This document shows, one piece after another, positions 2,368-64,000 of a DNA stretch of 64,000 nucleotides; within the stretch, counting starts at the first letter, position 1, and every line of letters starts with the position of its first letter. The position numbers and the translations under genes were made by a program. Source of the stretch: Escherichia coli (lineage in GTDB: Bacteria > Pseudomonadota > Gammaproteobacteria > Enterobacterales > Enterobacteriaceae); the NCBI RefSeq assembly GCF_044324875.1, contig NZ_CP172185.1, one strand, 5' to 3'. The notes beneath the pieces are model-generated. The model was not told the DNA's origin, did not search any database, and saw only the letters and a list, made by a program, of their open reading frames with translations.

Positions 2368-2397
2368 CAGCACCGGGTCATTCATCCGTTCAGGGAG

Positions 2398-3713: not shown

Positions 3714-3789
3714 TTGGTGCCCGGAGGCGGAATCGAACCACCGACACGGGGATTTTCAATCCCCTGCTCTACCGACTGAGCTATCCGGG
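3714..3789 (-). tRNA. pheV: tRNA-Phe (GAA anticodon), 76 nt including CCA
   Basis: Reverse complement is GCCCGGATAGCTCAGTCGGTAGAGCAGGGGATTGAAAATCCCCGTGTCGGTGGTTCGATTCCGCCTCCGGGCACCA. Matches E. coli tRNA-Phe except for the T-stem (see findings). Confidence 0.9.
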
Positions 3790-3895
3790 CAACGGGGCGC
3801 ATTAAACCTGATTCGCCTCGTCTCGTCAATCAAATTTCTTCAATTTACTGCAGACTGCACAATCTATCATCACTTTGCCGCTAATGCACGCATTG

Positions 3896-15607: not shown

Positions 15608-15646
15608 GCCGGATAATATAAAAAGTTATCCGGCAAATTATTTTTT
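15608..15646 (+). terminator. Intrinsic terminator after yggM
   Basis: GCCGGATAA/TTATCCGGC hairpin followed by a T-rich run. Confidence 0.55.
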
Positions 15647-17458: not shown

Positions 17459-17493
17459 CCTGGAAAATCAGGGCCAGAGACTGGCCCGGAATA

Positions 17494-44881: not shown

Positions 44882-45165
44882 CAATTTATTCCAGTTATTG
44901 CAGGGGTATTATTACGCCAGCCTGGAATAAAGCCCCCTACAAAAGGGGATAAAAGTGTGATGTAAGTCAGATAAATGTCTTCTTCGGCTGGACAATCATT
45001 CCTTTTATTCCACGTTTCGCTTATCCTAGCTGAAGCGTTTCAGTCGATTAAATGTTCGACAATTAACCAATCAGTCGCAGTTTGCGACAGGTAAGGTTTC
45101 CCCGGACGATTTGCTGGATTACTCTGTCTGGCAAATTTGCTCAGGGAAAACCTTGCAGGAGATCT

Positions 45166-46185
45166 ATGACCGTACGCGTAGCGATAAATGGCTTCGGTCG
45201 CATCGGGCGTAATGTGGTTCGTGCCTTGTATGAATCCGGACGCCGGGCGGAAATTACCGTGGTGGCAATCAACGAACTGGCGGATGCTGCGGGCATGGCG
45301 CATTTGTTGAAATATGACACCAGCCATGGCCGTTTTGCATGGGAAGTACGACAGGAACGCGATCAACTTTTTGTTGGTGATGACGCCATCCGCGTATTGC
45401 ATGAACGTTCACTGCAATCGCTCCCCTGGCGTGAACTTGGCGTTGATGTAGTCCTCGACTGCACCGGCGTATATGGCTCCCGCGAGCATGGCGAAGCGCA
45501 TATTGCCGCCGGGGCCAAAAAAGTGCTCTTTTCACATCCTGGCAGTAACGATCTCGACGCGACCGTTGTTTACGGCGTCAATCAGGATCAACTTCGTGCG
45601 GAACACCGCATCGTTTCTAACGCTTCCTGTACCACGAATTGCATAATTCCCGTCATCAAATTGTTAGATGATGCGTACGGTATTGAGTCCGGCACTGTGA
45701 CCACAATTCACTCCGCCATGCACGATCAACAGGTTATTGATGCATACCATCCTGACCTGCGTCGCACTCGGGCAGCCAGCCAGTCGATCATTCCGGTCGA
45801 TACTAAACTGGCCGCCGGTATCACACGATTTTTTCCGCAATTTAACGATCGCTTTGAAGCGATTGCGGTACGTGTGCCAACCATAAATGTGACGGCAATC
45901 GATTTAAGCGTGACGGTGAAGAAACCTGTAAAAGCCAATGAAGTCAACCTGTTGCTGCAAAAAGCAGCACAAGGTGCATTTCATGGTATAGTTGACTATA
46001 CGGAATTGCCGTTGGTCTCTGTAGATTTTAACCACGATCCGCACAGTGCCATTGTCGATGGCACCCAAACCCGGGTCAGTGGCGCACACCTGATCAAAAC
46101 GTTGGTCTGGTGCGATAACGAATGGGGCTTTGCTAACCGAATGCTCGACACGACGTTAGCTATGGCTACTGTTGCTTTCAGGTAA
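45166..46185 (+). CDS. epd: Erythrose-4-phosphate dehydrogenase
   Basis: Translation from [15 protein letters not shown] matches Epd (339 aa). Confidence 0.95.
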
Positions 46186-46234
46186 GACGCAAGCAGCGTC
46201 TGCAAAACTTTTAGAATCAACGAGAGGATTCACC

Positions 46235-47398
46235 ATGTCTGTAATTAAGATGACCGATCTGGATCTTGCTGGGAAACGTGTATTTATCCGTGCGGATCTG
46301 AACGTACCAGTAAAAGACGGGAAAGTAACCAGCGACGCGCGTATCCGTGCTTCTCTGCCGACCATCGAACTGGCCCTGAAACAAGGCGCAAAAGTGATGG
46401 TAACTTCCCACCTGGGTCGTCCTACCGAAGGCGAGTACAACGAAGAATTCTCTCTGCTGCCGGTTGTTAACTATCTGAAAGACAAACTGTCTAACCCGGT
46501 TCGTCTGGTTAAAGATTACCTCGACGGCGTTGACGTTGCTGAAGGTGAACTGGTTGTTCTGGAAAACGTTCGCTTCAACAAAGGCGAGAAGAAAGACGAC
46601 GAAACCCTGTCCAAAAAATACGCTGCACTGTGTGACGTGTTCGTAATGGACGCATTCGGTACTGCTCACCGCGCGCAGGCTTCTACTCACGGTATCGGTA
46701 AATTCGCTGACGTTGCGTGCGCAGGCCCGCTGCTGGCAGCTGAACTGGACGCGCTGGGTAAAGCACTGAAAGAACCTGCTCGCCCGATGGTGGCTATCGT
46801 TGGTGGTTCTAAAGTATCTACCAAACTGACCGTTCTGGACTCCCTGTCTAAAATCGCTGACCAGCTGATTGTTGGTGGTGGTATCGCTAACACCTTTATC
46901 GCGGCACAAGGCCACGATGTGGGTAAATCCCTGTACGAAGCTGACCTGGTTGACGAAGCTAAACGTCTGCTGACCACCTGCAACATCCCGGTTCCGTCTG
47001 ATGTTCGCGTAGCAACCGAGTTCTCTGAAACTGCACCGGCTACCCTGAAATCTGTTAACGATGTGAAAGCTGACGAGCAGATCCTGGATATCGGTGATGC
47101 TTCCGCTCAGGAACTGGCTGAAATCCTGAAGAATGCGAAAACCATTCTGTGGAACGGTCCGGTTGGCGTGTTCGAATTCCCGAACTTCCGCAAAGGTACT
47201 GAAATCGTGGCTAACGCTATCGCAGACAGCGAAGCGTTCTCCATCGCTGGCGGCGGCGACACTCTGGCAGCAATCGACCTGTTCGGCATTGCTGACAAAA
47301 TCTCCTACATCTCCACTGGCGGCGGTGCATTCCTCGAATTCGTGGAAGGTAAAGTACTGCCTGCAGTAGCGATGCTCGAAGAGCGCGCTAAGAAGTAA
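46235..47398 (+). CDS. pgk: Phosphoglycerate kinase
   Basis: Translation from [15 protein letters not shown] matches Pgk (387 aa). Confidence 0.97.
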
Positions 47399-47461
47399 AA
47401 AAATCACAGGGCAGGGAAACCTGCCCTTGTTGCAGCGCGCTTTTAAAGCACGCACTTTTTC

Positions 47462-47586
47462 ATACTCTAAATAATTCGAGTTGCAGGAAGGCGACAAGAG
47501 AGTGAATCCCATGAGCTTACATAAGTAAGTGACTGAGGTGAGCGAACGCAGACGCAGCACATGCAACTTGAAGTATGACGAGTATA
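47462..47586 (+). repeat. ERIC (IRU) repetitive element, copy 1, pgk–fbaA spacer
   Basis: Contains the ERIC core GTGAATCCC..GAGCTTACATAAGTAAGTGACTG.GGTGAGCG; near-identical to the inverted copy at 60520-60648. Confidence 0.7.
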
Positions 47587-47612
47587 AGGCCCGACGATAC
47601 AGGACAAGAGAC

Positions 47613-48692
47613 ATGTCTAAGATTTTTGATTTCGTAAAACCTGGCGTAATCACTGGTGATGACGTACAGAAAGTTTTCCAGGTAGCAAAAGAAAACAACT
47701 TCGCACTGCCAGCAGTAAACTGCGTCGGTACTGACTCCATCAACGCCGTGCTGGAAACCGCTGCTAAAGTTAAAGCGCCGGTTATCGTTCAGTTCTCCAA
47801 CGGTGGTGCTTCCTTTATCGCTGGTAAAGGCGTGAAATCTGACGTTCCGCAGGGTGCTGCTATCCTGGGCGCGATCTCTGGTGCGCATCACGTTCACCAG
47901 ATGGCTGAACATTATGGTGTTCCGGTTATCCTGCACACCGACCACTGCGCGAAGAAACTGCTGCCGTGGATCGACGGTCTGCTGGACGCGGGTGAAAAAC
48001 ACTTCGCTGCTACCGGTAAGCCGCTGTTCTCTTCTCACATGATCGACCTGTCTGAAGAATCTCTGCAAGAGAACATCGAAATCTGCTCTAAATACCTGGA
48101 GCGCATGTCCAAAATCGGCATGACTCTGGAAATCGAACTGGGTTGCACCGGTGGTGAAGAAGACGGCGTGGACAACAGCCACATGGACGCTTCTGCACTG
48201 TACACCCAGCCGGAAGACGTTGATTATGCGTATACCGAGCTGAGCAAAATCAGCCCGCGTTTCACCATCGCTGCCTCCTTCGGTAACGTACACGGTGTTT
48301 ACAAGCCGGGTAACGTTGTTCTGACTCCGACCATCCTGCGCGACTCTCAGGAATATGTTTCTAAGAAACACAACCTGCCGCACAACAGCCTGAACTTCGT
48401 ATTCCACGGTGGTTCCGGTTCTACTGCTCAGGAAATCAAAGACTCCGTAAGCTACGGCGTAGTGAAAATGAACATCGATACCGATACCCAATGGGCAACC
48501 TGGGAAGGCGTTCTGAACTACTACAAAGCAAACGAAGCTTATCTGCAGGGTCAGCTGGGTAACCCGAAAGGCGAAGATCAGCCGAACAAGAAATATTACG
48601 ATCCGCGCGTATGGCTGCGTGCCGGTCAGACTTCGATGATCGCTCGTCTGGAAAAAGCATTCCAGGAACTGAACGCGATCGACGTTCTGTAA
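47613..48692 (+). CDS. fbaA: Fructose-bisphosphate aldolase class II
   Basis: Translation from MSKIFDFVKPGVITGDD matches FbaA (359 aa). Confidence 0.97.
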   Translation: MSKIFDFVKPGVITGDDVQKVFQVAKENNFALPAVNCVGTDSINAVLETAAKVKAPVIVQFSNGGASFIAGKGVKSDVPQGAAILGAISGAHHVHQMAEHYGVPVILHTDHCAKKLLPWIDGLLDAGEKHFAATGKPLFSSHMIDLSEESLQENIEICSKYLERMSKIGMTLEIELGCTGGEEDGVDNSHMDASALYTQPEDVDYAYTELSKISPRFTIAASFGNVHGVYKPGNVVLTPTILRDSQEYVSKKHNLPHNSLNFVFHGGSGSTAQEIKDSVSYGVVKMNIDTDTQWATWEGVLNYYKANEAYLQGQLGNPKGEDQPNKKYYDPRVWLRAGQTSMIARLEKAFQELNAIDVL

Positions 48693-48715
48693 GATATTCC
48701 TTTCTGCTTATCTCA

Positions 48716-48742
48716 AGGCCCGCTCTGCGGGTCTTTTTTTTG
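48716..48742 (+). terminator. Intrinsic terminator after fbaA
   Basis: CCCGCtctgCGGG hairpin followed by TTTTTTTT. Confidence 0.6.
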
Positions 48743-48756
48743 CTAAAAGAAAAATT

Positions 48757-48857
48757 GCCTGATGCGCTACGCTTATCAGGCCTACACGTATCCTGCAATA
48801 TATTGAATTCGCAGGTTTTTGTAGGCCGGATAAGGCGTTCACGCCGCATCCGGCATG
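48757..48857. repeat. REP/BIME cluster
   Basis: GCCTGATGCGCTACGCTTATCAGGCCTACA and GTAGGCCGGATAAGGCGTTCACGCCGCATCCGGCA units. Confidence 0.6.
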
Positions 48858-48883
48858 ACAAAGCGCACATTGATATCTGTCTG

Positions 48884-48908
48884 AGCCCCGCTCTGCGGGG
48901 ATTTTTTC
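48884..48908 (+). terminator. Second terminator-like hairpin (CCCCGCtctgCGGGG plus T-run)
   Basis: Near-duplicate of the hairpin at 48716-48742, on the other side of the BIME. Confidence 0.5.
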
Positions 48909-49049
48909 GCCAAAAGCAAGGTGATGCAGATGAGAAATCTGTGATCTATTTGGCAAAATTATGCTTTATTGTTTACCCTTGTCAGACTGCCCGTCATAAG
49001 GCGGCGGAGTGTATTTCTCCATTTTGAGTCAGTTGAAAAGGAATATTGA

Positions 49050-49925
<876 letters not shown>

Positions 49926-49966
49926 TCATGTAAAGCGCCCATGAAGTTCATGGGCGCACTACCAAT

Positions 49967-51010
49967 TTAACGCATTGTTTCATCGAGTATATTGGCAACT
50001 TTTTGCATGACTTCCCCGGCTTTCTCCACGCCTTCCTTATTTTGCTTTTCTACCCACTGTGCTTGTTCTTGCTGATAACCGATCGCTTTCTGCCAGGCGT
50101 CCAGCCCTGATTTTTTCAGATAGCGAACCTGTGCACCTTCCTGCTCAAGCGTTTTTACCATGCTGATCAGGTTGTTATCTAATGCCTTGCCCAGTGCTTT
50201 CTCGGTTGTAATGGCAGCTCGTTGAATAGCCTCACGATCTCTGTTATCAAGGTTTTCCCACGATTGTTTATTCATTACCAACAGATAAACATGACCAAGC
50301 CAGAGAGAAGGTGAGAGCAACACATTCGGCGCAGCACGTTCAGCATGGATGTCATATCCGCTATCGAGATTGACCATTAAACCATCCAGTTTTCCATCCA
50401 TGAGTGCTTTAGTTATTTGATCATTCCACGGTAAAGTTACGGTTTTTGCCCCCGTATGAGTTAAATAAGCCCGATGCCAGAAACTGGCTGTTCGCCAGGT
50501 GGTTCCCTGAAGCGCAGTCAATTTATCAATGGGCCTGGTAGAGAAAAAGCCTACCGGGTAGCCAAGGAAAAACTGTAAATTCACGATATTGTTACGCTCA
50601 AGTTCAGCGTTAAATTCGGGAATTTCCGCATATACGCGACGAAAGAATTCTACCTGACTGGCTCCATGATCCGGGCCAATAGCAAAGCTCTTGAAGATTT
50701 GATGAAGCGGCAATTGTTTCGCGGTGTATTCCGGCACCACTATACCCATATCAGCTTTGCTGCCATCGCTTATTGTCGTCAGAGCGTCATAGCTGATGGC
50801 GGTTTCACCGTTCCAGTGTGGTTCGATTTTCAAACGCCCCTGCGACTCTTTTTCAATTTCTGCAAAAAATATCTCTTTAATTATTTGTGTACGCATTCCC
50901 CCGTAGGGTTCATGGTCTGTATAACGAAGAATTTTTTCAGCAGCAAAAATCGAGGGAGATAACAGAAGAAATCCTGATAAAAGAAAGGGGAGTAATTGTC
51001 GGTAGTGCAT
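49967..51010 (-). CDS. Orphan periplasmic solute-binding protein, DctP (TRAP) family, 347 aa
   Basis: Signal peptide; aligns by eye with the dctP-like protein at 17494-18480 (WRTAS vs GTRSF, LMDGKLDG vs QQGVVDG, LVMNKQSWENL vs LVISTKTWNKL). No permease genes adjacent. Confidence 0.7.
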   Translation of the reverse strand: MHYRQLLPFLLSGFLLLSPSIFAAEKILRYTDHEPYGGMRTQIIKEIFFAEIEKESQGRLKIEPHWNGETAISYDALTTISDGSKADMGIVVPEYTAKQLPLHQIFKSFAIGPDHGASQVEFFRRVYAEIPEFNAELERNNIVNLQFFLGYPVGFFSTRPIDKLTALQGTTWRTASFWHRAYLTHTGAKTVTLPWNDQITKALMDGKLDGLMVNLDSGYDIHAERAAPNVLLSPSLWLGHVYLLVMNKQSWENLDNRDREAIQRAAITTEKALGKALDNNLISMVKTLEQEGAQVRYLKKSGLDAWQKAIGYQQEQAQWVEKQNKEGVEKAGEVMQKVANILDETMR

Positions 51011-51125
51011 ATCTGTTCCTTCAGTTTATTAATTCAACTTATACTATATTAATTTTATCAATTATCCCTAATGTTATTCCTGCGCTATAGTCTGCGCATC
51101 AGATAATTAGCCCGGAATTAATTAC

Positions 51126-51760
51126 GTGATATCTTATTACTTTCAAGGTCTTGCACTTGGGGCGGCTATGATCCTACCGCTCGGTCCACAAAATGCTTTT
51201 GTGATGAATCAGGGCATACGTCGTCAGTACCACATTATGATTGCCTTACTTTGTGCTATCAGCGATTTGGTCCTGATTTGCGCCGGGATTTTTGGTGGCA
51301 GTGCGTTATTGATGCAGTCGCCGTGGTTGCTGGCGCTGGTCACCTGGGGCGGCGTAGCCTTCTTGCTGTGGTATGGTTTTGGCGCTTTTAAAACAGCATG
51401 AGCAGTAATATTGAGTTAGCCAGCGCCGAAGTCATGAAGCAAGGCAGATGGAAAATTATCGCCACCATGTTGGCAGTGACCTGGCTGAATCCGCATGTTT
51501 ACCTCGATACTTTTGTTGTTCTGGGCAGCCTTGGCGGGCAACTTGATGTGGAACCAAAACGTTGGTTTGCGCTCGGGACAATTAGCGCTTCTTTCCTGTG
51601 GTTCTTTGGTCTGGCTCTTCTCGCTGCCTGGCTGGCACCGCGTCTGCGCACGGCAAAAGCACAGCGCATTATCAATCTGGTTGTGGGATGTGTTATGTGG
51701 TTTATTGCCTTGCAGCTGGCGAGAGACGGTATTGCTCATGCACAAGCCTTGTTCAGTTAG
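51126..51760 (+). pseudogene. argO: Arginine exporter ArgO (LysE family), disrupted by a 1-bp frameshift at about 51397
   Basis: Two overlapping ORFs (91 aa ending ..GFGAFKTA, then [12 protein letters not shown].. of 120 aa) together reconstitute 211-aa ArgO; junction reads GCATGAGC where GCAATGAGC would keep the frame. Confidence 0.7.
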
Positions 51761-51852
51761 GCGCTATCTGATGGAAAAATAAAACAGAGGCGCTAAGCTT
51801 GCCTCCAGAGGTCCTGAATTTTAGGCAAGTCAATTAACACGGAGAGACTAAC

Positions 51853-52593
51853 GTGAAGTTCAAAGTTATCGCCCTGGCGGCATTAATGGGTATTAGCGGG
51901 ATGGCAGCGCAGGCTAACGAATTGCCGGATGGACCGCATATTGTCACCTCCGGTACGGCAAGCGTGGATGCGGTGCCAGACATTGCCACTCTTGCGATTG
52001 AAGTCAACGTGGCCGCGAAGGATGCCGCTACTGCCAAGAAACAGGCGGATGAGCGCGTCGCACAATACATTTCCTTCCTTGAACTCAATCAGATCGCGAA
52101 AAAAGATATCAGCTCAGCGAACTTACGCACCCAGCCAGATTATGATTATCAGGATGGTAAAAGTATCCTGAAAGGCTACCGTGCTGTGAGAACGGTGGAA
52201 GTCACGCTCCGTCAGTTAGACAAACTGAATTCCTTGCTGGACGGCGCGCTGAAGGCGGGTCTTAACGAAATTCGTTCTGTGTCGCTGGGCGTGGCGCAGC
52301 CGGATGCCTATAAAGACAAAGCGCGTAAGGCAGCGATTGATAACGCGATTCATCAGGCGCAGGAACTGGCGAACGGCTTTCATCGTAAACTGGGGCCGGT
52401 ATATAGCGTGCGCTACCATGTTTCCAACTATCAGCCCAGCCCAATGGTGCGGATGATGAAAGCCGATGCCGCGCCGGTGTCCGCCCAGGAAACTTACGAG
52501 CAGGCCGCTATTCAGTTTGATGATCAGGTCGATGTGGTCTTCCAGTTAGAACCTGTGGATCAACAACCCGCTAAAACACCTGCCGCACAATAA
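51853..52593 (+). CDS. yggE: Periplasmic SIMPL/DUF541 protein YggE
   Basis: 246-aa ORF with signal peptide; matches YggE. Confidence 0.9.
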   Translation: MKFKVIALAALMGISGMAAQANELPDGPHIVTSGTASVDAVPDIATLAIEVNVAAKDAATAKKQADERVAQYISFLELNQIAKKDISSANLRTQPDYDYQDGKSILKGYRAVRTVEVTLRQLDKLNSLLDGALKAGLNEIRSVSLGVAQPDAYKDKARKAAIDNAIHQAQELANGFHRKLGPVYSVRYHVSNYQPSPMVRMMKADAAPVSAQETYEQAAIQFDDQVDVVFQLEPVDQQPAKTPAAQ

Positions 52594-52760
52594 TACTTGT
52601 AGCCCGACGTATTGGTCGGGCTAATGCCTTTACCCGATATTGCCTCCTTTTTCTGTAATTTTCTGTAAAACCATGACGTAATCACCTATCTTTGCTCGCG
52701 GTTTCATCAAGGATAGGCTGACTGAAACGGTTAAGCGGACAAGGATGCGGGGGAGCGGGG

Positions 52761-53657
52761 ATGGACATTTTTATTTCGAAAAAGATGCGCAATTTCATTT
52801 TATTAGCGCAAACCAATAATATTGCCCGGGCGGCAGAAAAAATCCATATGACGGCTTCGCCATTTGGCAAAAGCATTGCCGCGCTGGAAGAACAAATTGG
52901 CTATACGCTATTTACCCGCAAAGATAATAATATCAGCCTCAATAAAGCCGGGCAGGAACTGTATCAAAAACTGTTCCCGGTTTATCAACGACTTTCTGCG
53001 ATTGATAATGAAATCCATAACTCAGGACGTCGTTCACGAGAAATTGTGATAGGCATAGATAATACTTATCCGACCATTATTTTTGATCAGTTGATTAGTC
53101 TCGGAGATAAGTACGAAGGCGTGACCGCCCAGCCAGTTGAGTTCAGCGAAAACGGCGTTATCGATAATCTTTTTGACCGTCAGTTAGATTTTATTATCTC
53201 CCCACAGCATGTATCTGCACGAGTTCAGGAACTGGAAAATCTGACTATCAGTGAACTACCACCGCTGCGATTGGGCTTTCTCGTTTCTCGCCGTTATGAA
53301 GAGCGTCAAGAGCAAGAGCTGCTTCAGGAGCTGCCCTGGCTACAAATGCGCTTTCAGAACCGGGCCAACTTCGAAGCAATGATTGATGCGAATATGCGAC
53401 CTTGTGGGATCAATCCAACCATTATTTATCGTCCCTACAGTTTTATGGCCAAAATCAGCGCCGTGGAGCGCGGACATTTTCTGACGGTGATCCCGCATTT
53501 TGCCTGGCGACTGGTGAATCCGGCAACGCTGAAATATTTTGATGCACCGCACAGGCCGATGTATATGCAGGAATATCTTTATTCAATCAGAAATCATCGT
53601 TATACCGCCACGATGCTTCAGCATATTGCTGAAGATCGTGACGGGACGAGTCATTAA
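52761..53657 (+). CDS. ygfI: LysR-family transcriptional regulator YgfI
   Basis: 298-aa ORF with N-terminal HTH (NNIARAAEKIHMTASPFGKSI). Confidence 0.9.
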   Translation: MDIFISKKMRNFILLAQTNNIARAAEKIHMTASPFGKSIAALEEQIGYTLFTRKDNNISLNKAGQELYQKLFPVYQRLSAIDNEIHNSGRRSREIVIGIDNTYPTIIFDQLISLGDKYEGVTAQPVEFSENGVIDNLFDRQLDFIISPQHVSARVQELENLTISELPPLRLGFLVSRRYEERQEQELLQELPWLQMRFQNRANFEAMIDANMRPCGINPTIIYRPYSFMAKISAVERGHFLTVIPHFAWRLVNPATLKYFDAPHRPMYMQEYLYSIRNHRYTATMLQHIAEDRDGTSH

Positions 53658-55132
53658 CCCAGCATCGAGCCGGTTGCAATTAAATTACGGTGTAAATCGA
53701 AGACGTGGCTAAGATCGTGGTGAATATGTCCGCCGGGCGCATTTTCCAGATAGCGATGCAGATAATCCCGATACATAGGATGTGCACAATTATCAATGAT
53801 AGTGCGGGCGCGTTGAAGCGGGGAAAGACCACGCAGATCGGCGATCCCTTGTTCGGTGATGATCACTTTGACGCTGTGTTCGCTGTGATCAACATGGCTG
53901 CACATTGGCACGACGGTTGAGATCTTGCCTTCTTTAGCAATCGACGGGGCCATAAAGATCGACAGATACGCGTTGCGTTCAAAATCGCCGCTGCCACCGA
54001 TGCCGTTCATCAGATCGACCCCGGCTACGTGCGTTGAGTTGGCATGCCCGTAAATATCAAACTCCAGGCCGACGTTCAGAGCGATGACGCCCAGACGACG
54101 GATGATTTCCGGGTTATTGGAAATCTCCTGCGGACGCAACACAATGCGGCTGGCAAAGTAATCCATATTGTCGTAAATCTTGCGCAGGGAATCGGCCGAG
54201 ATAGTCAGGCTGGAGGCGCTGGCCCCGCTGATTTTGCCCGTTTCCAGTAAATGCACCACCGATTCCTGTAGCACTTCCGAATACATCATAAACGGAGGAA
54301 TTTCCGGATTTTCCCCCAGACGCGCCATTACCGCATTATTGATGTTGCCCACGCCACTTTGCAGCGGCAGAAATTCCGGCGGAATACGCCCATGCGCCAT
54401 TTCCTGCAACAAGAACGTGACCACGTTATCGGCAATCTGCTGGCACATGGGATTTTGCTTATCCAGCATATTACCGGCGTCGGGCAAGTTGGTTTCCACG
54501 ACGGCGACAATCTTTTTCGGATCGATTTGCACATAGCGGGTACCGACGCGATCCATTGCATGGAAGATCGACACGCTATTGCGCCGCGGTGGCGCGCCAG
54601 GAATCACAATATCTGCCAGTTCTGCAACGCGCGGATCGTGATAGTGATTGAGTTCAATGATCACTTTCTTCGCCCGCAGCAGCCAGGTCGGCGCATTACC
54701 GATCCCGCTGGTTAACCAGACTCGACCATCCGGTGCCAGTGCCGATGCTTCAATGACGGCAACATCAATTTCGCCGAAGAAACCGTAATTGACCATTTGC
54801 GCCACTTCGCTCAAATGCAGGTCAACGAAACTCACCGCGCCCTGATTGATCTTTTTACGTAAACCGGACGATGTTTGATATGGCGCACGCTAGGAAACAG
54901 CATCGGCGTCAGAAAGTACATCGTCAGCGGCGGCGCTGATTGACGCCCCCGTCAGCAGGCGAATTTGATACGGCTTTTTGGCCTCATGCTGTTCGTTAGC
55001 TCTGCGGGCAATCGCGGTGGGTAAGGCTTTCGGCGAACCCGCTGGGGTAAAGCCGCTAAATGCCACCATGTCGTTATGCTGGATAATTTCTGCCGCTTCA
55101 TCGGCGGTCATCCTTGTCCACTGAGTTTCCAT
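53654..55132 (-). pseudogene. scpC: Propionyl-CoA:succinate CoA-transferase ScpC (YgfH), interrupted by an in-frame TAG at 54890-54892
   Basis: 80 codons (METQWTRMTADEAAEII...DADAVS), then TAG, then the same frame continues RAPYQTSSGLRKKINQGAVSFVDLHL... for another 411 codons to the natural stop. Confidence 0.7.
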
Positions 55133-55155
55133 TTTAACTCCTTCGTTCGCAGGGA

Positions 55156-55941
55156 TTAATGACCAACGAAATTAGGTTTACGTTTTTCGAGGAAAGCGTT
55201 CATCCCTTCCTGGTAATCTTCGCTGTCATAAACCGCGCGGCGCATCCCCTGAATACGTTCAAATTCATCGGAGTTCATGGTGTGTGCTTCGCCCAGTACA
55301 CGCAGCTCTTCTTTGATAACGGCAATGGCTAACGGCGCTTTCTCAGAGATGTGGTGCGCCATTTGTAAGGTGAAATCTTCCAGTTCTTCCACTTCCACAA
55401 CATGGTTGAGGATGCCGACAGCCAGCGCGCGCTGGGCGGTGATTGGCGAAGCGGTAAAAATCAGCTCTTTGACAATGTGGAAGCCCGCGTCGCGGGTCAG
55501 GTTGTGAATGCCGACCAGGTTATACGGGACGCCGAGGTTTACAGGTGTCATTGAGAAGGTTGAGGTACTGGCGGCGATGATCAGATCGGAACTCATGATC
55601 ATTTCAAATGCGCCACCCCAGACACTACCTTCCACCATCGAAATGATCGGTTTCGGGAATTTTTGGATCATGCGGGTGATTTGACGCAATGGATCATCAT
55701 AGGAGAGCGGATCGCGACCGCCAGACGGCAGTTCGTGAATATCGTGACCTGCGGAGAAGACTTTGGATCCACTCGGCGCGCGCAAAATGATACAGCGAAT
55801 TTCCGGCCGGTTGAGATCGCTTAACGCCTGCATAAGATCATCAATAAAGACTTTACTTAAGGCATTAAGTTTTCGGCCATAGTTAAACTCAATGACCGCC
55901 ACTTTGTTGATAGTGACAACGTTCACATACTGATAAGACAT
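55156..55941 (-). CDS. scpB: Methylmalonyl-CoA decarboxylase
   Basis: Translation from MSYQYVNVVTINKVAVIEFN matches ScpB/YgfG (261 aa). Confidence 0.9.
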   Translation of the reverse strand: MSYQYVNVVTINKVAVIEFNYGRKLNALSKVFIDDLMQALSDLNRPEIRCIILRAPSGSKVFSAGHDIHELPSGGRDPLSYDDPLRQITRMIQKFPKPIISMVEGSVWGGAFEMIMSSDLIIAASTSTFSMTPVNLGVPYNLVGIHNLTRDAGFHIVKELIFTASPITAQRALAVGILNHVVEVEELEDFTLQMAHHISEKAPLAIAVIKEELRVLGEAHTMNSDEFERIQGMRRAVYDSEDYQEGMNAFLEKRKPNFVGH

Positions 55942-55951
55942 AAAAATTCCT

Positions 55952-56947
55952 TTAATCAAAATATTGCGTCTGGATAAATTCACTGAGCTGCCGCAGGCCG
56001 GTGCGCGGTGAGAGCGTATTGTTTTTGACCGCTAAAAGCGTCTGGCGGTAATAGCGATCGAAATCTTCATTCGCGAACAGGTGATTCAGTACTTCTTCTT
56101 CGGTTTGTTTACGCAGCCATTCCACCGATTGTTGTTGCCGCACTTGTTGTAATCGACCACTGGCAGTTAGCGCGGTTTTGAAGTCGATGATGGCGTGCCA
56201 GATCTCATCGATTCCACGTTTTTCCAGTGCGCTACAAGTCAGAACCCGTGGCTGCCATTCGTCGTATTTACGTCGCAGAATATGCAGGGCACTCTCGTAC
56301 ATATGCCGGGCAATGGCGATATTGGTATGGTTATCGCCATCGTCTTTGTTGATAACGATCAGATCTGCCACTTCCATCAGCCCCTTTTTAATGCCCTGCA
56401 GATCATCGCCGCCACCGGCAATTTGCAACGAGATAAAACAGTCCACCATGCGGGCGACTTCCGTTTCTGACTGCCCGACGCCAACCGTTTCGACAATCAC
56501 TACGTCATAACCCGCCGCTTCGCATAACAGCATTAATTCCCGCGCTCGCTGACTGGCACCGCCCAGATGGCCGGAGGAGGGTACCGGGCGAATAAACGCC
56601 GCCTCGGCACGCGCCAGGTCATTCATGCGGGTTTTATCCCCGAGGATGCTACCGCCAGTGACCGGGCTGCTAGGATCGACCGCAATAACCGCAACCTTTA
56701 ATCCATCACGAATCAACAACATGCCAAAGGCTTCAAGAAAGGTACTTTTCCCCGCGCCGGGTGTGCCGGTAACGCCCAGTCGCAGGGCGTTACCACAGAA
56801 CGGCATAATGGCATCAAGCAGCTGCGTACTTAGCGCCTGATGACGCGGGTGACGGCTTTCTACCAGCGTCATGGCCTGGGCGAGCGTGGCACGCTCACCC
56901 TGACGTAAGCGGCGAATACTTTCTGCCAGCGTGGCTTCATTAATCAT
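55952..56947 (-). CDS. argK: Methylmalonyl-CoA mutase-associated GTPase (MeaB-like)
   Basis: P-loop GTPGAGKST; matches ArgK/YgfD (331 aa). Confidence 0.9.
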
Positions 56948-59084
56948 GATGCTGGCTTATCAGATTCAGTACGTCGCGCACGCTGTCGAGCATAGGTGTA
57001 CCTGGACCATAAATCGCCGCCACGCCGCGCTCTTGCAGGAAGGCGTAATCCTGCGGCGGAATGACGCCACCCGCGACCACGCAGATATCTTCGCGTCCCC
57101 ATTTTTTCAGCGCTTCGACCAGTTCCGGGATCAGCGTTTTATGACCGGCAGCCAGTGAAGATGCGCCCACTACGTGAACGTCGTTTTCTACTGCCAGGCG
57201 GGCGATCTCTTCAGGTGTAGAGAACATCGGGCTTAAATCTACGTCGAAACCGAGATCGGAATAGGCGCTGGCGATCACTTTTGCGCCGCGATCGTGCCCA
57301 TCCTGGCCCATTTTGGCGATCAGAATGCGCGGGCGACGACCATTGTCGGCAAGGAACTGCTCCGTTTGCGCAACAATGGCATCGAACTCGGTGGCCGATT
57401 TCTCAGACTGATGATAGCTTTGCGCAATCACGCCGGTAACACACTGGCTTGGCACCAGATAACGGTCAAATGCCGCTTCCAGCGCATCGGAAATTTCACC
57501 AAGCGTTGCGCGAACGCGAGCGGCATTAACAGCGGCAGCCAGCAGGTTTTCGTTATGCTGTGCGGCGTGAGTCAGGGCGTTCAACGCGGCGGTTACGGCG
57601 GCATCATCACGGGTGGCGCGAATGCGTTCCAGCGAAGCAATTTGCTCGTTACGCACCATCACGTTGTCGATCTCAAGTACATCGGTTTCGTCTTCGTGAT
57701 CCAGTTTGTACTTGTTGACACCAACGATGACACGCTTGCCCTGGTCGATCAACGACTGTTCGCGCGCGGAAGCCTCTTCGATCATTCGTTTTGGCAGACC
57801 TGCTTCGATCGCTTTCGCCATGCCACCGGCTTCGTCGATCTGTTGGATAATGGCTCTGGCTTGTTTGACGATTTGATCGGTCAGCGATTCAACGTAATAG
57901 GATCCGGCCAGTGGATCGACGGTGCGGCAGAGTTCTGATTCTTCCTGAATGATGATCTGGGTGTTGCGGGCAATGCGTGCTGAGAAATCGGTAGGCAAAC
58001 CAAGCGCTTCATCAAAGGCGTTGGTATGCAGTGACTGAGTACCGCCCAGCGTTGCAGCCAGTGCTTCAATGGTGGTGCGGATAACGTTGTTATACGGATC
58101 CTGTTCAGTCAGGCTCCAGCCTGAGGTCTGGCAGTGGGTACGCAGCGCCAGTGATTTCGGATCCTGTGCGCCAAATCCACTGACCGCTTCGCTCCATAAA
58201 TAACGTGCCGCACGCAACATGGCGACGTTCATAAACAGATCCATGCCAATGCCGAAGAAGAACGACAGGCGAGGAGCGAAGTCATCAATTTTCAGCCCGG
58301 CGGAGATTGCTGCTTTGATGTACTCAATCCCATCAGCGAGCGTAAATGCTACCTGCTGCACGCAGTTGGCACCCGCTTCACCCATATGGTAACCGCTGAT
58401 ACTGATGGTATTAAATCGCGGCATGTTGCCGGAACACCAGGCGATGATGTCTGCGATAATACGCATTGACGGTTTTGGCGGGTAAATATAGGTGTTGCGG
58501 CAAAGATACTCTTTGAGGATATCGTTTTGAATGGTGCCGGTCAGTTTATCGGGTGTAACACCTTGCTCTTCTGCGGCGACAATATAAAACGCCAGTACTG
58601 GTAGTACTGCGCCATTCATGGTCATCGAAACCGACATTTTATCCAGCGGGATCTGGTCGAACAGGACTTTCATATCTTCCACGGTGTCGATAGCAACGCC
58701 CGCTTTGCCGACGTCGCCCGCCACGCGCGGGTTATCGGAGTCGTAGCCTCGGTGGGTGGCAAGGTCAAACGCAACGGAAAGACCTTTTTGCCCGGCGGCC
58801 AGGTTACGGCGATAAAAAGCGTTGGACTCTTTTGCTGTTGAAAAACCAGCATACTGACGGATGGTCCACGGTTGGGCGGTATACATAGTGGCACGCGGGC
58901 CACGAACGTAGGGCGGCAAACCAGGAAGGGTACCTGTCACCTCCAGATTATCGAGATCGGCTTCGGTATACAGCGGCTTGATGGCGATCCCTTCCGCGGT
59001 TTGCTGAACCAGCGAGTCGACAGTTTTCTCCCGACGGCTCAATTCCTTGTTGGCAAGCTGTTGCCACTCCTGCACCTTAGACAT
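56940..59084 (-). CDS. scpA: Methylmalonyl-CoA mutase
   Basis: Translation from [16 protein letters not shown] matches ScpA/Sbm (about 714 aa). Confidence 0.95.
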
Positions 59085-59286
59085 TATTTGCTCCGTAAAA
59101 CGCAATCAAAATGAGGGTATTTGCGCTTACGGTGAGCTTTTTACGTGGGTTTGTCGCCAGCAAAAAAATGCATTCAGACGTCGTTTTTTGCCGCCTGAGA
59201 TTTGTCTATTTTGTGATGTGATTCAAGGAATACAAAAAGAAGTGAGGATAACGCCTGATATGTGCTATCAGGCATTATTTGATGGA

Positions 59287-60180
59287 TTAATCCTGACGAA
59301 GGACTTTGTGACCATAATCGAGCAACGCATCAGTGACTTTACGCATCATGCGGCTTTCAGGAGCAAAGCGGTGCCAGTAGAGCATCCGGCGTTGAAATAG
59401 CCCTGGCGTTAAGTCAATCAGTTCACCGCTGGCCAGTTCTTTCTCGATTTGCAGGTGCGGGATCATACAGCAGGTGGTGCCCTGGCGAGCAAGTTGCACG
59501 AACGCTTCTGAAGAATTAACGATATGGCACGGTACGCTGCCTGGGGGCAGATCGAAGTTTTGCTGCAAAAAGGCCTGGTGCATATCGTCAAGATGGTCAA
59601 AGGCGACCACAGGTGCTTTCAGTAATGCCGAACGCGTTACGCCGTTAGGGAAATATTTTTCGGCAAACGGTTTTGAGCTGACGAACAGATAGTCGAGCGC
59701 ACCGAGCTTATCGACAAGACAGCTCGGCAGCGCCTGATGTTGAATACTCACCGCGCCGACCACTTCGCCGCGGCGCAGGCGTTCCTGAGTGCGGGTTTCA
59801 TCTTCTACCTGCAAGTTGAGGCGGATAGGCGAATCAGCCAATACAGGAGCCAGCGCCGGAAGCAACCACGTCGCCAGACTGTCGGCGTTGACCGCCAGTG
59901 AAAGCAGCAGCGGAGTCGAACCGGTTTGTTCATCGCCCAGCCACTCTTCTTCCAGCAACTCCACCTGGCGCAGCAGTGCCAGCAGTTTTTGCCCTTGTTC
60001 TGTCGGGCGCGGTGGTACGGTACGCACCAACAGCGGCTGCCCGAACATATTTTCCAGTTGCTTAATGCGTTGTGAGACGGCTGATTGTGTAATGCACAGC
60101 TTTTGTGCCGCGCGCTCAAATCCTCGTTCACGTATCACCGCATCCAGTGCCTGTAATGTTCTGTAGTCCGGGCGTTTCAT
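59287..60180 (-). CDS. argP: LysR-family regulator ArgP (IciA)
   Basis: Translation from [28 protein letters not shown] matches ArgP (297 aa). Confidence 0.9.
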
Positions 60181-60519
60181 TGCTGTTGTCTGCTCCTGGT
60201 AAATGCTTTTTCCTGCACTATGACACAATTTTGTGTCAGGTTGCATATACCGAAGCCGTCGGTGGGTAACATTTGTATCAATGGTTAAACGCGCAGCTTA
60301 AAAGATCAGGGATTTGCGCTATTGCATTTCGCTTAGCGACTTCGCGCCCTGGTTATGTTGAATGGCGTGGCGTTATTGCCTCTGATCGCACCGTGGAGCG
60401 GCATACCCAGACCGTTATATGCTTTATTTGCCGGGCGAAAGGGGATGCCTGCCATTGCGCGATATTTTATGGATGAGTTAACCACGCGGCTTGCCAACGG
60501 GGTCTGAATCGCTTTTTTG

Positions 60520-60648
60520 TATATACTCGTCATACTTCAAGTTGCATGTGCTGCGTCTGCGTTCGCTCACCCCAGTCACTTACTTCTGTAAGCTCCTGGG
60601 GATTCACTCTCTTGTCGCCTTCCTGCAACTCGAATTATTTAGAGTATA
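60520..60648 (-). repeat. ERIC (IRU) repetitive element, copy 2, inverted relative to copy 1
   Basis: Reverse complement is near-identical to 47462-47586; lies immediately upstream of rpiA. Confidence 0.7.
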
Positions 60649-60684
60649 ATGCGTGTGAAATTTCATACCACAGGCGAAACGATC

Positions 60685-61344
60685 ATGACGCAGGATGAAT
60701 TGAAAAAAGCAGTAGGATGGGCGGCACTTCAGTATGTTCAGCCCGGCACCATTGTTGGTGTAGGTACAGGTTCCACCGCCGCACACTTTATTGACGCGCT
60801 CGGCACGATGAAAGGCCAGATTGAAGGGGCCGTTTCCAGTTCAGATGCTTCCACTGAAAAACTGAAAAGCCTCGGCATTCACGTTTTTGATCTCAACGAA
60901 GTCGACAGCCTTGGCATCTACGTTGATGGCGCAGATGAAATCAACGGCCACATGCAAATGATTAAAGGCGGCGGCGCGGCGCTGACCCGTGAAAAAATCA
61001 TTGCTTCGGTTGCAGAAAAATTTATCTGTATTGCCGACGCCTCCAAGCAGGTTGATATTCTGGGCAAATTCCCGCTGCCAGTAGAAGTTATCCCGATGGC
61101 ACGTAGTGCAGTGGCGCGCCAGCTGGTGAAACTGGGCGGTCGTCCGGAATACCGCCAGGGCGTGGTGACCGATAACGGCAACGTGATCCTCGACGTCCAC
61201 GGCATGGAAATCCTTGACCCGATAGCGATGGAAAACGCCATAAATGCGATTCCTGGCGTGGTGACTGTTGGCTTGTTTGCTAACCGTGGCGCGGACGTTG
61301 CGCTGATTGGCACACCTGACGGTGTCAAAACCATTGTGAAATGA
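60685..61344 (+). CDS. rpiA: Ribose-5-phosphate isomerase A
   Basis: Translation from [18 protein letters not shown] matches RpiA (219 aa). Confidence 0.95.
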
Positions 61345-61599
61345 TCTGACGGGGGAACCTCCCCCGTTAAAAAAATTCTCTTCATTAAATTTGGTGACAT
61401 GTGTCACGTTTTTACCTGGCTATTGTCGATTGCTCTAAATAAATCTTCTAAACCAGCATATTCATCCAAGAAATACCTTTGCGTGATATTTCCTCAACAT
61501 CGCGACGCAAACGTTCATATTGCCGCAATATTATTTTTTGATATGTTGAAAGGCGGATGCAAATCCGCACACAACATTTCAAAAGACAGGATTGGGTAA

Positions 61600-62832
61600 A
61601 TGGCAAAGGTATCGCTGGAGAAAGACAAGATTAAGTTTCTGCTGGTTGAAGGCGTGCACCAAAAGGCGCTTGAAAGCCTTCGTGCAGCGGGTTACACCAA
61701 CATCGAATTTCACAAAGGCGCGCTGGATGATGAACAATTAAAAGAATCCATCCGCGATGCCCACTTCATCGGCCTGCGATCCCGTACCCATCTGACTGAA
61801 GACGTGATCAACGCCGCAGAAAAACTGGTCGCTATTGGCTGTTTCTGTATCGGAACAAACCAGGTTGATCTGGATGCGGCGGCAAAACGCGGGATCCCGG
61901 TATTTAACGCACCGTTCTCAAATACGCGCTCTGTTGCGGAGCTGGTGATTGGCGAACTGCTGCTGCTATTGCGCGGCGTGCCGGAAGCCAATGCTAAAGC
62001 GCACCGTGGCGTGTGGAACAAACTGGCGGCGGGTTCTTTTGAAGCGCGCGGCAAAAAGCTGGGTATCATCGGCTACGGTCATATTGGTACGCAATTGGGC
62101 ATTCTGGCTGAATCGCTGGGAATGTATGTTTACTTTTATGATATTGAAAACAAACTGCCGCTGGGCAACGCCACTCAGGTACAGCATCTTTCTGACCTGC
62201 TGAATATGAGCGATGTGGTGAGTCTGCATGTACCAGAGAATCCGTCCACCAAAAATATGATGGGCGCGAAAGAGATTTCACTAATGAAGCCCGGCTCGCT
62301 GCTGATTAATGCTTCGCGCGGTACTGTGGTGGATATTCCGGCGCTGTGTGACGCGCTGGCGAGCAAACATCTGGCGGGGGCGGCAATCGACGTATTCCCG
62401 ACGGAACCGGCGACCAACAGCGATCCATTTACCTCTCCGCTGTGTGAATTCGACAACGTCCTTCTGACGCCACACATCGGCGGTTCGACTCAGGAAGCGC
62501 AGGAGAATATCGGCCTGGAAGTTGCAGGTAAATTGATCAAGTATTCTGACAATGGCTCAACGCTCTCTGCAGTGAACTTCCCGGAAGTCTCGCTGCCACT
62601 GCACGGTGGGCGTCGTCTGATGCACATCCACGAAAACCGTCCGGGCGTGCTAACTGCGCTGAACAAAATCTTCGCCGAGCAGGGCGTCAACATCGCTGCC
62701 CAGTATCTGCAAACCTCTGCGCAAATGGGTTACGTAGTTATTGATATTGAAGCTGATGAAGACGTTGCCGAAAAGGCGCTGCAGGCAATGAAAGCTATTC
62801 CGGGTACCATTCGCGCCCGTCTGCTGTACTAA
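61600..62832 (+). CDS. serA: D-3-phosphoglycerate dehydrogenase
   Basis: Translation from MAKVSLEKDKIKFLLVEG matches SerA (410 aa). Confidence 0.97.
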   Translation: MAKVSLEKDKIKFLLVEGVHQKALESLRAAGYTNIEFHKGALDDEQLKESIRDAHFIGLRSRTHLTEDVINAAEKLVAIGCFCIGTNQVDLDAAAKRGIPVFNAPFSNTRSVAELVIGELLLLLRGVPEANAKAHRGVWNKLAAGSFEARGKKLGIIGYGHIGTQLGILAESLGMYVYFYDIENKLPLGNATQVQHLSDLLNMSDVVSLHVPENPSTKNMMGAKEISLMKPGSLLINASRGTVVDIPALCDALASKHLAGAAIDVFPTEPATNSDPFTSPLCEFDNVLLTPHIGGSTQEAQENIGLEVAGKLIKYSDNGSTLSAVNFPEVSLPLHGGRRLMHIHENRPGVLTALNKIFAEQGVNIAAQYLQTSAQMGYVVIDIEADEDVAEKALQAMKAIPGTIRARLLY

Positions 62833-62851
62833 TTCCCCTTCTCTGAAAATC

Positions 62852-62885
62852 AACGGGCAGGTCACTGACTTGCCCGTTTTTTTAT
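62852..62885 (+). terminator. Intrinsic terminator after serA
   Basis: AACGGGCAGGTCA/TGACTTGCCCGTT stem followed by TTTTTTT. Confidence 0.6.
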
Positions 62886-62989
62886 CGCTTCTCCACACCG
62901 TTGCCGCGTTGTGCATTCGGCTTTGCGAGTCTGCTCCAGAAAATAAATCAAAGTCAGATCAATGCGTTGTGTTTATTTAATGGGGATTT

Positions 62990-63140
62990 ACGATGGCAGG
63001 GCAGCATGGTGCTGTAACGGTAAAGCCCTCACCGAAGCGAGGGCTTGAAGGAGAAGGGTTATGATGCGACTTGTCATCATACTGATTGTACTGTTACTCA
63101 TAAGTTTCCCAGCTTATTAACAGTCAGTCTCAGGGGAGGA
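62990..63140 (-). ncRNA. sibC: Antisense antitoxin sRNA SibC (approximate boundaries)
   Basis: Inferred from the ibsC position and the known antisense arrangement; ends not determinable by eye. Confidence 0.35.
63061..63120 (+). CDS. ibsC: Type I toxin small hydrophobic peptide IbsC (19 aa)
   Basis: MMRLVIILIVLLLISFPAY with RBS GGAG upstream, in the serA–ygfA spacer where the sibC/ibsC locus lies in E. coli. Confidence 0.6.
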   Translation: MMRLVIILIVLLLISFPAY

Positions 63141-63220
63141 GTCATCCTCCCTTACCCTTACTCACTAAATTAGGTTAAAGAATCAACGATGTCAATCAGG
63201 GCGATGCAGGTGTGTCGCCC

Positions 63221-63769
63221 TTACCACTCCCAGACTTTCGACGGTGTAACCACCGCAGGAAGTGGGATATCCCACTCTTCAACGGGGAGTTTTTCCACCA
63301 ACTGACAATCATGCGCATAACCCACCGGTTGCATTTGATAGCGCTGCCAGTTTTGTAAGGTCCGATCATAAAAACCACCGCCCATTCCCAGGCGCTGACC
63401 GTACTCATCAAAGGCGACCAGCGGTGTGATCAACACGTCTAATCGGGAAAGGGGTAGCACGTCACGCACATCCAGTTTTGGCTCATGGATCTTCAACCTG
63501 TTCATCACCAGTTCGCTTTGCGGATGGTAATTCAGGAACAGCAAATTACCGGCACTAAAGGGATGCAAAACTGGAAGATATACGCGCTTACCGGCGCGCC
63601 AGAGTTGTTCTATGAGTGGCTGGGTGTCGAGTTCGCCATCAAAAGAGAGGAATACAGCGACCGTATGTGCCATCACCACTGGGGGATAAGTCATCATCCG
63701 GGTAGCAGCTTGTTGACCCATTTCCTGCTGTTGTTCCGGCGTTAACGCACGACGACGTTGCCGAATCAT
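63221..63769 (-). CDS. ygfA: 5-formyltetrahydrofolate cyclo-ligase
   Basis: Translation from MIRQRRRALTPEQQQEMGQQ matches YgfA (182 aa); the longer ORF upstream overlaps ssrS. Confidence 0.9.
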   Translation of the reverse strand: MIRQRRRALTPEQQQEMGQQAATRMMTYPPVVMAHTVAVFLSFDGELDTQPLIEQLWRAGKRVYLPVLHPFSAGNLLFLNYHPQSELVMNRLKIHEPKLDVRDVLPLSRLDVLITPLVAFDEYGQRLGMGGGFYDRTLQNWQRYQMQPVGYAHDCQLVEKLPVEEWDIPLPAVVTPSKVWEW

Positions 63770-63841
63770 TTTGCGGATTTCTTGTCGGGATAATGTCAGT
63801 GGGAGTTCTGGTAGTTGCGTCATGGCTGGTGCCAGATAAGA

Positions 63842-64000
63842 AGGGAATCTCCGAGATGCCGCCGCAGGCTGTAACCCTTGAACCCTTGGTTCAAGGTGAA
63901 TGTGTCGTCGCAGTTTTAAGGCTTCTCGGACGGACCGAGCATGCTCACCAACCGCGGAGCGCCACATTCTTGTGGTATGAAATATCGGCTCAGGGGACTG
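63842..64000 (-). ncRNA. ssrS: 6S RNA, 3' 159 nt (5' end beyond the window)
   Basis: Reverse complement matches the 6S RNA sequence ...CAGUCCCCUGAGCCGAUAUUUCAUACCACAAGAAUGUGGCGCUCCGCGGUUGGUGAGCAUGCUCGG...GGAGAUUCCCU; directly upstream of ygfA as in E. coli. Confidence 0.8.

Follow-up and report, generated by a model that had tools for sequence, protein, structure and literature searches.

Why an otherwise intact gene should carry a single amber codon near its start, and whether the same stop has appeared in other Escherichia coli lineages by one route or by several, were the questions raised by scpC in the stretch of DNA analysed here (64,000 nt, referred to as the window). The gene and its remaining reading frames were located as follows.

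53654..55132, minus strand: scpC (ygfH) pseudogene, propionyl-CoA:succinate CoA-transferase, 492 codons plus stop, broken at codon 81.
54890..54892, minus strand: in-frame amber TAG at codon 81, ancestral TGG (Trp81), from translation and reference alignment.
54890..55132, minus strand: residual N-terminal ORF of 80 aa plus TAG, the sole product expected from the normal start, from the ORF list.
53654..54835, minus strand: predicted downstream ORF of 393 aa from an internal GTG (codon 100), from the ORF list.

Translation of 55132..53654, beginning with the ATG at 55132 on the minus strand (N-terminus METQW...) and ending with the natural stop at 53656..53654, yielded 493 codons. The sole internal stop was codon 81, directly after ...DADAVS, where the minus strand reads GTT TCC TAG CGT and the plus strand reads cgCTAGGaa. 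The earlier note had reported this in-frame TAG within 54887-54895, and it was confirmed at 54892..54890 on the minus strand, inside that interval. The frame was also open beyond the stop, as the earlier note had described, with 411 further sense codons before the natural end of the gene. To identify the gene, the 1479-nt scpC was searched by megablast against 5,426 complete E. coli genomes, 5,423 of which matched. The matched features were annotated as 'scpC: propionyl-CoA:succinate CoA transferase', and the best match among the complete genomes, a PGAP-annotated scpC, was 99.5% identical in DNA across the full 1479 nt. Compared with the annotated gene of E. coli strain 104, scpC differed by 8 substitutions in 1479 nt, including TGG>TAG at codon 81, and the resulting amino-acid changes were N39T, W81*, and D121E. 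Alignment to a reference gene, which had been proposed as the way to identify the ancestral codon, thus gave TGG (Trp81). The mutation, at nt 242 of the gene, was a single G>A transition, equivalent to C>T at window position 54891 on the plus strand. No second lesion was observed in scpC, and the description of a single substitution in an otherwise intact gene was therefore upheld.

When Trp81 was restored, the 492-aa ScpC agreed at every residue with a very common intact allele that occurs in 11,133 index blocks of a public protein collection. Given this identity, T39 and E121 are ordinary polymorphisms, and no amino-acid change has built up behind the stop. The lack of both a second lesion and a private amino-acid change supports a young pseudogene, and the suggestion of recent inactivation instead of old decay is accordingly favored. 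The conceptual full-length product aligned over residues 8-491 with the solved class I CoA-transferases 2NVV (E=4e-166) and AarC 4EU3, and the Pfam domains AcetylCoA_hydro and AcetylCoA_hyd_C are recorded on an intact ScpC orthologue. Thus, more than 80% of one conserved fold, spanning residues 8-491, is lost through the stop at residue 81. The 393-aa remainder, which public-contig gene callers report as an identical ORF, would miss the first 99 residues of this fold, in which the alignment to homologues begins at residue 8. The TAG may be read through at a low level, or translation may restart at the internal GTG. With its frame interrupted at codon 81, scpC here is, judging from the truncation, a loss-of-function allele and an ordinary nonsense pseudogene.

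The other genes of the operon and the convergent regulator were located next to scpC.

55156..55941, minus strand: scpB, methylmalonyl-CoA decarboxylase, 261 aa, intact; 786 of 786 nt aligned, with no gaps, stops, or amino-acid differences.
55952..56947, minus strand: meaB/argK, mutase-associated GTPase, 331 aa, intact; aligned without gaps or stops.
56940..59084, minus strand: scpA (sbm), B12-dependent methylmalonyl-CoA mutase, 714 aa, intact; aligned without gaps or stops.
52761..53657, plus strand: srsR/ygfI, LysR regulator, convergent with scpC and sharing 4 nt with its 3' end.

The gap-free and stop-free alignments of scpA, argK, and scpB to the genes of E. coli strain 104 bore out the claim that these three genes remain intact. 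Gene order was colinear with strain 104, namely, argP, scpA, meaB, scpB, scpC, convergent srsR, yggE, argO, mscS, fbaA, pgk, and epd. As scpC is the last gene of the operon, its stop has no downstream gene on which polarity could act. The sbm ('sleeping beauty mutase') operon of E. coli K-12 matches that of the window in its four genes, their order, and its neighbors argP and srsR/ygfI, but in the window the final enzyme, ScpC, is cut short at residue 80. The operon scpA-argK-scpB-scpC has been described as silent in E. coli (PMC5512728). Moreover, at least 80% of scpC was covered in just 4,308 of the 5,423 matching complete genomes, and the operon was partly missing from about one fifth. Since this dispensable operon is reported as silent and is partly absent in about one fifth of genomes, loss of scpC is probably neutral or weakly deleterious.

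As the mutated base lies within an ancestral CCWGG motif, the Dcm sites of scpC were considered.

54890..54894, plus strand: former Dcm site, now CTAGG and ancestrally CCAGG, with the mutated base 54891 being the inner (5-methyl) cytosine; from the sequence and site enumeration.
54683..54687, plus strand: second scpC Dcm site, CCAGG, overlapping codon W150; intact in the window and mutated to TAG in other E. coli lineages.

Each position of the wild-type scpC at which one C>T or G>A transition yields a stop was enumerated. Only 2 of the 26 such positions fell on the methylated base of CCWGG, namely, W81 (nt 242) and W150 (nt 449). The change observed at codon 81, C>T on one strand and G>A on the other (TGG>TAG), is of the class expected at a Dcm base. 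If deamination of 5-methylcytosine made the allele, W81>TAG and W150>TAG should recur, while TGA in the same codons and stops at W139, outside any Dcm site, should not.

Accordingly, these alleles were counted in the 5,426 complete genomes using 40-mers that carried the mutant base at position 20, which forced each 28-nt megablast seed to include that base. The wild-type TGG at codon 81 was present in 3,999 complete genomes. At the two Dcm positions, TAG was observed at W81 in 5 complete genomes and at W150 in 9 records, two pairs of which were apparently duplicate assemblies. None of the four alleles outside Dcm positions was observed (W81-TGA, W150-TGA, W139-TAG, and W139-TGA, each 0 of 5,426). 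Counted by haplotype, the two Dcm alleles represented 7 independent lineages (4 + 3) and the four control alleles 0, and simple arithmetic from the haplotype counts gives a chance of (1/3)^7, or approximately 5e-4, for a 7:0 outcome at equal rates. The five genomes with TAG at codon 81 were E. coli FORC_042, EH53, HCP6S3_I2, HCP30S3_I2, and GMF065. In all five, PGAP annotated scpC as a pseudogene with an internal stop, as it did in the fetched carriers of W150-TAG. All five shared the W81 TAG allele and the operon context of the window, while their scpC genes differed from that of the window by 15-17 substitutions. Thus, owing to their different haplotype backgrounds, their mutations were independent of the lineage of the window.

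Public contigs gave a similar picture on a larger scale. The exact 80-aa product of W81* was found in 192 contigs (290 index blocks), where records with this exact sequence bear the label E. coli, with 65 and 4 further contigs for two N-terminal variants; the exact product of W150* was found in 84. The eight truncated products used as non-Dcm controls ranged from 0 to 24 contigs (W139* 18, Q97* 20, Q86* 19, Q112* 14, Q226* 24, Q56* 2, R137* 0, and Q202* 0). These numbers count contigs, not independent events, and are inflated by clonal sampling. Some control matches were genes cut at contig ends, and the controls are therefore overcounted if anything. Many other truncated forms of ScpC were also present, in clusters of 12-353 members, which together with the partial absence of the operon fits weak constraint on scpC.

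To assess independent origins, the 7.4-kb argP-srsR block was aligned across the fetched carriers. W81* spanned 10 haplotype groups that were 30-140 substitutions apart, equal to species-wide diversity. All 17 W81* carriers read TTTCCTAGCG. Although TAG and TGA yield the same protein, each of the 17 sequences had TAG and none had TGA (10:0 by group, binomial p=0.002). At W150, eight groups were observed, five with TAG and three with TGA. Two of the three TGA carriers were on an ACA-TGG haplotype that lacks the Dcm site, where no TAG was found (n=2). Where W150 was in Dcm context, TAG and TGA were found in 5 and 1 groups, respectively, a less clean bias based on small numbers. The non-Dcm W139 (TCTGG) was interrupted on four haplotypes, two by TAG and two by TGA. 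Overall, the TAG:TGA ratio was 14:1 in Dcm context versus 2:4 elsewhere (Fisher p=0.011). For three of the W81* groups (L009/L038, L011/L037, and L003/L018/L028), siblings retaining TGG at codon 81 differed by no more than 5 SNPs over the 7.4-kb block. The lineage L003/L018/L028 had been struck in three separate ways, as L003 carried W81*, L018 W150*, and L028 W139*. On the sequences compared, the identical W81>TAG knockout is a recurrent homoplasy, with independent origins in at least ten E. coli lineages other than that of the window.

Consequently, with a probability of approximately 0.85, we consider that C>T at the Dcm-methylated inner cytosine of CCAGG made the Trp81>amber loss-of-function allele of scpC in the window. 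Dcm would methylate the inner cytosine of CCAGG on the non-coding strand of scpC (54891), and the 5-methylcytosine would then deaminate spontaneously to thymine. The resulting T:G mismatch would sometimes escape Vsr very-short-patch repair, and replication would fix CTAGG, which is TAG in the frame of scpC. Translation would halt after 80 of the 492 residues, with the presumed loss of the CoA-transferase step of the succinate-to-propionate (sbm) pathway, while scpA, meaB, and scpB would stay intact. Because CCAGG at codon 81 would be a hotspot, the same allele would arise repeatedly in unrelated E. coli lineages, and it would stay rare and limited to the tips of the tree.

Several other explanations were weighed against this one. 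A random G>A substitution, with a coincidental CCWGG and a recurrence produced by the huge number of sequenced genomes, would be consistent with the recurrence of non-Dcm nonsense alleles, such as W139* on four haplotypes and several Gln>stop products on 14-24 contigs, and with the absence of a Dcm excess in deep divergence described below. However, only the two Dcm alleles were seen in the 5,426 genomes (5 and 9 versus 0, 0, 0, and 0), the adjacent G of codon 81 was never mutated despite giving the same protein (10:0), and TGA predominated at W150 only where the Dcm site was missing, so that this explanation is quite unlikely. An error of sequencing or assembly, such as Nanopore basecalling at a Dcm motif in a truly intact gene, had to be considered because approximately 70% of the consensus errors of default ONT models fall in CCAGG/CCTGG (PMC6591954). 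In the window, however, all 173 CCWGG sites were intact, 54891 was the only C>T among approximately 308 methylated-C positions compared with two relatives, and the frameshifts, present in 2 of approximately 60 genes, were not in homopolymers. The same allele was also present in assemblies with short-read-like contig names (k111_/k141_ contigs and METAG scaffolds) and in drafts matching the haplotype of each complete-genome carrier (L002=L012, L003~L013, L004/5~L007, and L006=L008), which are independent assemblies. An artefact was thereby excluded by observation as the source of the recurrence, and for the window itself it is very unlikely. Reading of the TAG by an amber suppressor tRNA or by recoding, with full-length ScpC still being made, had no direct support; the intact remainder of the frame would agree with it but is predicted equally well by a young pseudogene. 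The single tRNA in the window was tRNA-Phe(GAA), and the TAG was rare and derived instead of conserved (5 versus 3,999 complete genomes with TGG, on scattered tips), which makes such decoding highly improbable.

The remaining two explanations accept the allele as real and concern its spread. The locus does recombine, as the operon of the window is itself a mosaic, and one old TAG allele could in principle have been distributed by homologous recombination or gene conversion. However, the carriers had no common private flanking variant. The nearest sites polymorphic among carriers were nt 228 and 249, lying 14 nt before and 7 nt after the mutated base, respectively, and any common imported tract would therefore be shorter than 21 bp. 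At no flanking polymorphic site, not even the one 7 nt away, did L009 or L011 depart from its intact sibling, and the W150 Dcm site showed the same behavior. As the carriers kept the flanking SNPs of their own lineages, the pattern is one of recurrent mutation, and spread by recombination, excluded by these observations for the carriers compared, is exceedingly improbable. Positive selection for scpC loss in some niches, with the hotspot merely supplying the mutation, would be additive to deamination at the Dcm site. It agrees with the many truncated forms (clusters of 12-353 members), with the lineage L003/L018/L028 that was struck in three separate ways, with the additional loss of scpA in L013, and with the coverage of at least 80% of scpC in only 4,308 of 5,423 genomes. 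In contrast, each nonsense allele was limited to approximately 0.1-0.2% of complete genomes in small tip clades, the intact protein occurred in 11,133 index blocks, and selection would not prefer the two Dcm sites to the remaining 24 at which a transition makes a stop. Positive selection is thus rather unlikely. The break in scpA of L013 was considered as a further Dcm event, but this was rejected because it was CAA>TAA at a non-Dcm site.

Deamination at the Dcm site thus remained the preferred explanation, and its trace was also sought over longer times. In the between-lineage divergence of the window, no C>T excess was found at Dcm positions (1 of approximately 308 versus a background of approximately 1%). 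Therefore, the hotspot is visible solely in tip-level alleles. The missing excess in deep divergence may be due to selection, ascertainment, or Vsr-biased back-conversion. As the nonsense alleles were rare and at the tips while intact ScpC was extremely common, long-term purifying selection on scpC is not absent. A decidedly unlikely idea is that Trp81 and Trp150 serve as a rough on/off switch, operated reversibly by mutation. In that case, the forward step would be 5-methylcytosine deamination (CCWGG>CTWGG), and the reverse step would be Vsr repair of T:G in CTWGG back to CCWGG, which would raise the reversion rate. Populations would then continually carry scpC-off variants and regain scpC-on faster than at an ordinary site. 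Such a switch would fit alleles that are recurrent yet confined to the tips, as well as the lack of a long-term C>T excess at Dcm positions.

The behavior of scpC resembles that of the classical hotspots in lacI. According to PMC12606429, Coulondre, Miller, Farabaugh & Gilbert (1978) found 2 of 26 potential lacI nonsense sites, both amber, to be over-represented approximately 10-fold. Both were G:C>A:T changes at the second C of CCAGG, and, in the same account, the hotspots were missing in strains without cytosine methylation, while a new site created a new hotspot (PMC12606429). A review adds that T:G mismatches arising from deamination undergo very-short-patch repair by Vsr/MutS/MutL. In scpC, G:C>A:T at the second C of CCWGG likewise gives amber codons, and among approximately 26 nonsense sites the few Dcm sites dominate. 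The lacI hotspot is gone in E. coli B; for scpC W150, the two events on the ACA-TGG haplotype, both TGA, point in the direction expected for such a loss (n=2). The two cases differ in that the lacI changes arose under laboratory selection as CAG>TAG changes of the coding strand, whereas those of scpC are natural alleles in public genomes, TGG>TAG, in which the non-coding strand bears the methylated C. Unlike for lacI, dcm dependence is suggested for scpC by sequence context. A genome-wide rate estimate is reportedly available from Cherry 2018; compared with this, scpC represents one specific site with a gene-inactivating outcome.

Thus, this is a known mechanism in a fresh example, and what is added here is the Dcm-site 5-methylcytosine cause, at the probability given above, and the recurrent homoplasy of scpC W81>TAG. 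In this genome, one enzyme of the cryptic B12-dependent succinate-to-propionate pathway would be lost, and scpC should be annotated as a pseudogene. W81 and W150 of scpC can be regarded as natural counterparts of the lacI amber hotspots. Owing to these hotspots, identical nonsense alleles in unrelated strains would be homoplasies caused by Dcm, and their recurrence would be no evidence for shared ancestry, recombination, or selection. This is relevant for SNP phylogenies, for convergence scans that take recurrent knockouts as adaptive, and for niche inferences based on pseudogenes. Moreover, W81 and W150 together with their neighboring non-methylated G's, mutation of which yields the same protein, form a built-in control and could be used to gauge 5-methylcytosine deamination and very-short-patch repair in natural populations.

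Dating of the mutation through close intact relatives was attempted and failed, as the operon is mosaic and no close intact scpC sibling was found. Look-ups with the repaired ScpC and with ScpA gave no near-identical intact relative of the scpC allele of the window, and the repaired ScpC was matched only on distant DNA backgrounds. The exact ScpA protein of the window was present in 459 index blocks. Strains with this ScpA had identical scpA-meaB DNA and TGG at codon 81, but their scpC differed at 15-16 sites and their srsR at 11-14. As scpA-meaB was identical while scpC-srsR was divergent, the operon of the window is a recombinational mosaic.

In the wider neighborhood, approximately 57 of 60 genes of the window were intact and 3 of approximately 60 were broken. 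Neither dcm nor vsr is among the genes of the window. No IS elements or repeats were found in the window apart from one 126-nt element. A 1.1-kb insert adjoining mscS was considered as an IS element, and this was rejected because it proved to be a DctP-like solute-binding gene. The closest complete E. coli genomes were 98.6-98.8% identical to the window over 20 kb. This distance and the three broken genes raised the idea of a Shigella origin, which was rejected in view of the missing IS elements, the largely intact gene content, and the E. coli label on records with the exact 80-aa product. Contig NMMD01000008.1 of GCA_002467655.1 (L016) was 100% identical to the window over 44890-64000 (19,111 nt), and it shared the split argO, the DctP-like gene, and the 291-aa MscS.

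Loss of the scp operon recurs in E. coli. Within a single lineage, represented by three E. coli sequences separated by at most 3 SNPs per 7.4 kb (L003, L018, and L028), three scpC nonsense alleles were found, each in a different isolate, namely, W81 TAG, W150 TAG, and W139 TGA. Among the other E. coli sequences compared, L013 carried an additional nonsense allele in scpA, Q573* (CAA>TAA), at a non-Dcm position, and L042 carried a frameshift on top of W150*. A separate, clonally expanded scpC lesion was represented by a truncated ScpC product from the public protein collection (P0003), 78 aa in length and ending in ...AAADGGVNQRRR, which was present on 83 contigs, those of strains DEC4D and 08BKT055439 among them; this lesion is apparently a frameshift near codon 70. 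Moreover, at least 80% of scpC was covered in only 4,308 of 5,423 complete E. coli genomes, roughly a fifth of the complete genomes thus having only partial scpC.

The ancestry of the operon was evaluated by comparing window 52761-60180 with the complete E. coli genomes L050-L053. Several complete genomes with intact scpC were identical to the window in the scpA-meaB DNA, while the same genomes differed from it at 15-16 sites in scpC and 11-14 sites in srsR. The scp operon of the window is a recombinational mosaic. When the whole window was compared with the E. coli sequences L041 and L001, no excess of C>T at Dcm inner-C positions was observed in between-lineage divergence, the counts being 0/210 and 1/98 against a background near 1%. 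In this respect, the Dcm positions between lineages contrasted with the tip-level hotspot behaviour of scpC, where the W81 and W150 TAG alleles recur in scattered lineages.

Two other genes of the window were also broken:

51126-51760, plus strand, argO (arginine exporter), 1-nt deletion near 51397
22119-23089, plus strand, yggR (PilT-like ATPase), frameshifted, 10-nt gap near 22774 compared with E. coli E200086

The argO deletion (CAGCGATG>CAGCATG) was located outside any homopolymer and left two ORFs of 91 and 120 aa; argO was split identically in L016, the sequence identical to window 44890-64000. In yggR, the gap relative to the reference E200086 resulted in a frameshift with two in-frame stops, and yggR is the third pseudogene of the window.

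Accessory genes, a probable element end, and small RNAs were located as follows:

49967-51010, minus strand, orphan DctP-like TRAP solute-binding gene between argO and mscS
49050-49925, mscS with a variant 291-aa C-terminus
15645-18480, minus strand, accessory operon for a TRAP transporter, with DctP-, DctQ/YiaM-, and DctM-like genes, between yggM and hemW
99-3790, helicase-like fragment, PFGI-1-class ICE relaxase (TraI/MobH), and tyrosine integrase, adjoining tRNA-Phe (3715-3790)
63045-63195, minus strand, SIB RNA (SibC-type antitoxin adjoining ibsC)
63844-64000, minus strand, 6S RNA, truncated at the window boundary
48778-48820, minus strand, ES036/CssrF sRNA in the fbaA-mscS spacer

The argO/DctP-like/mscS layout (49050-51010) was common to several other E. 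coli lineages (L015, L017, L020, L047, and L048), and the TRAP operon was missing in E200086. The 99-3790 segment resembles one terminus of an integrative element, with pheV as the insertion site. All three RNAs matched Rfam at the gathering score. Furthermore, a 126-nt element, by its size a candidate ERIC/IRU element, was present in two inverted copies (47462-47586 and 60522-60647; 96.8% identical), one in the pgk-fbaA intergenic region and the other in rpiA-argP.
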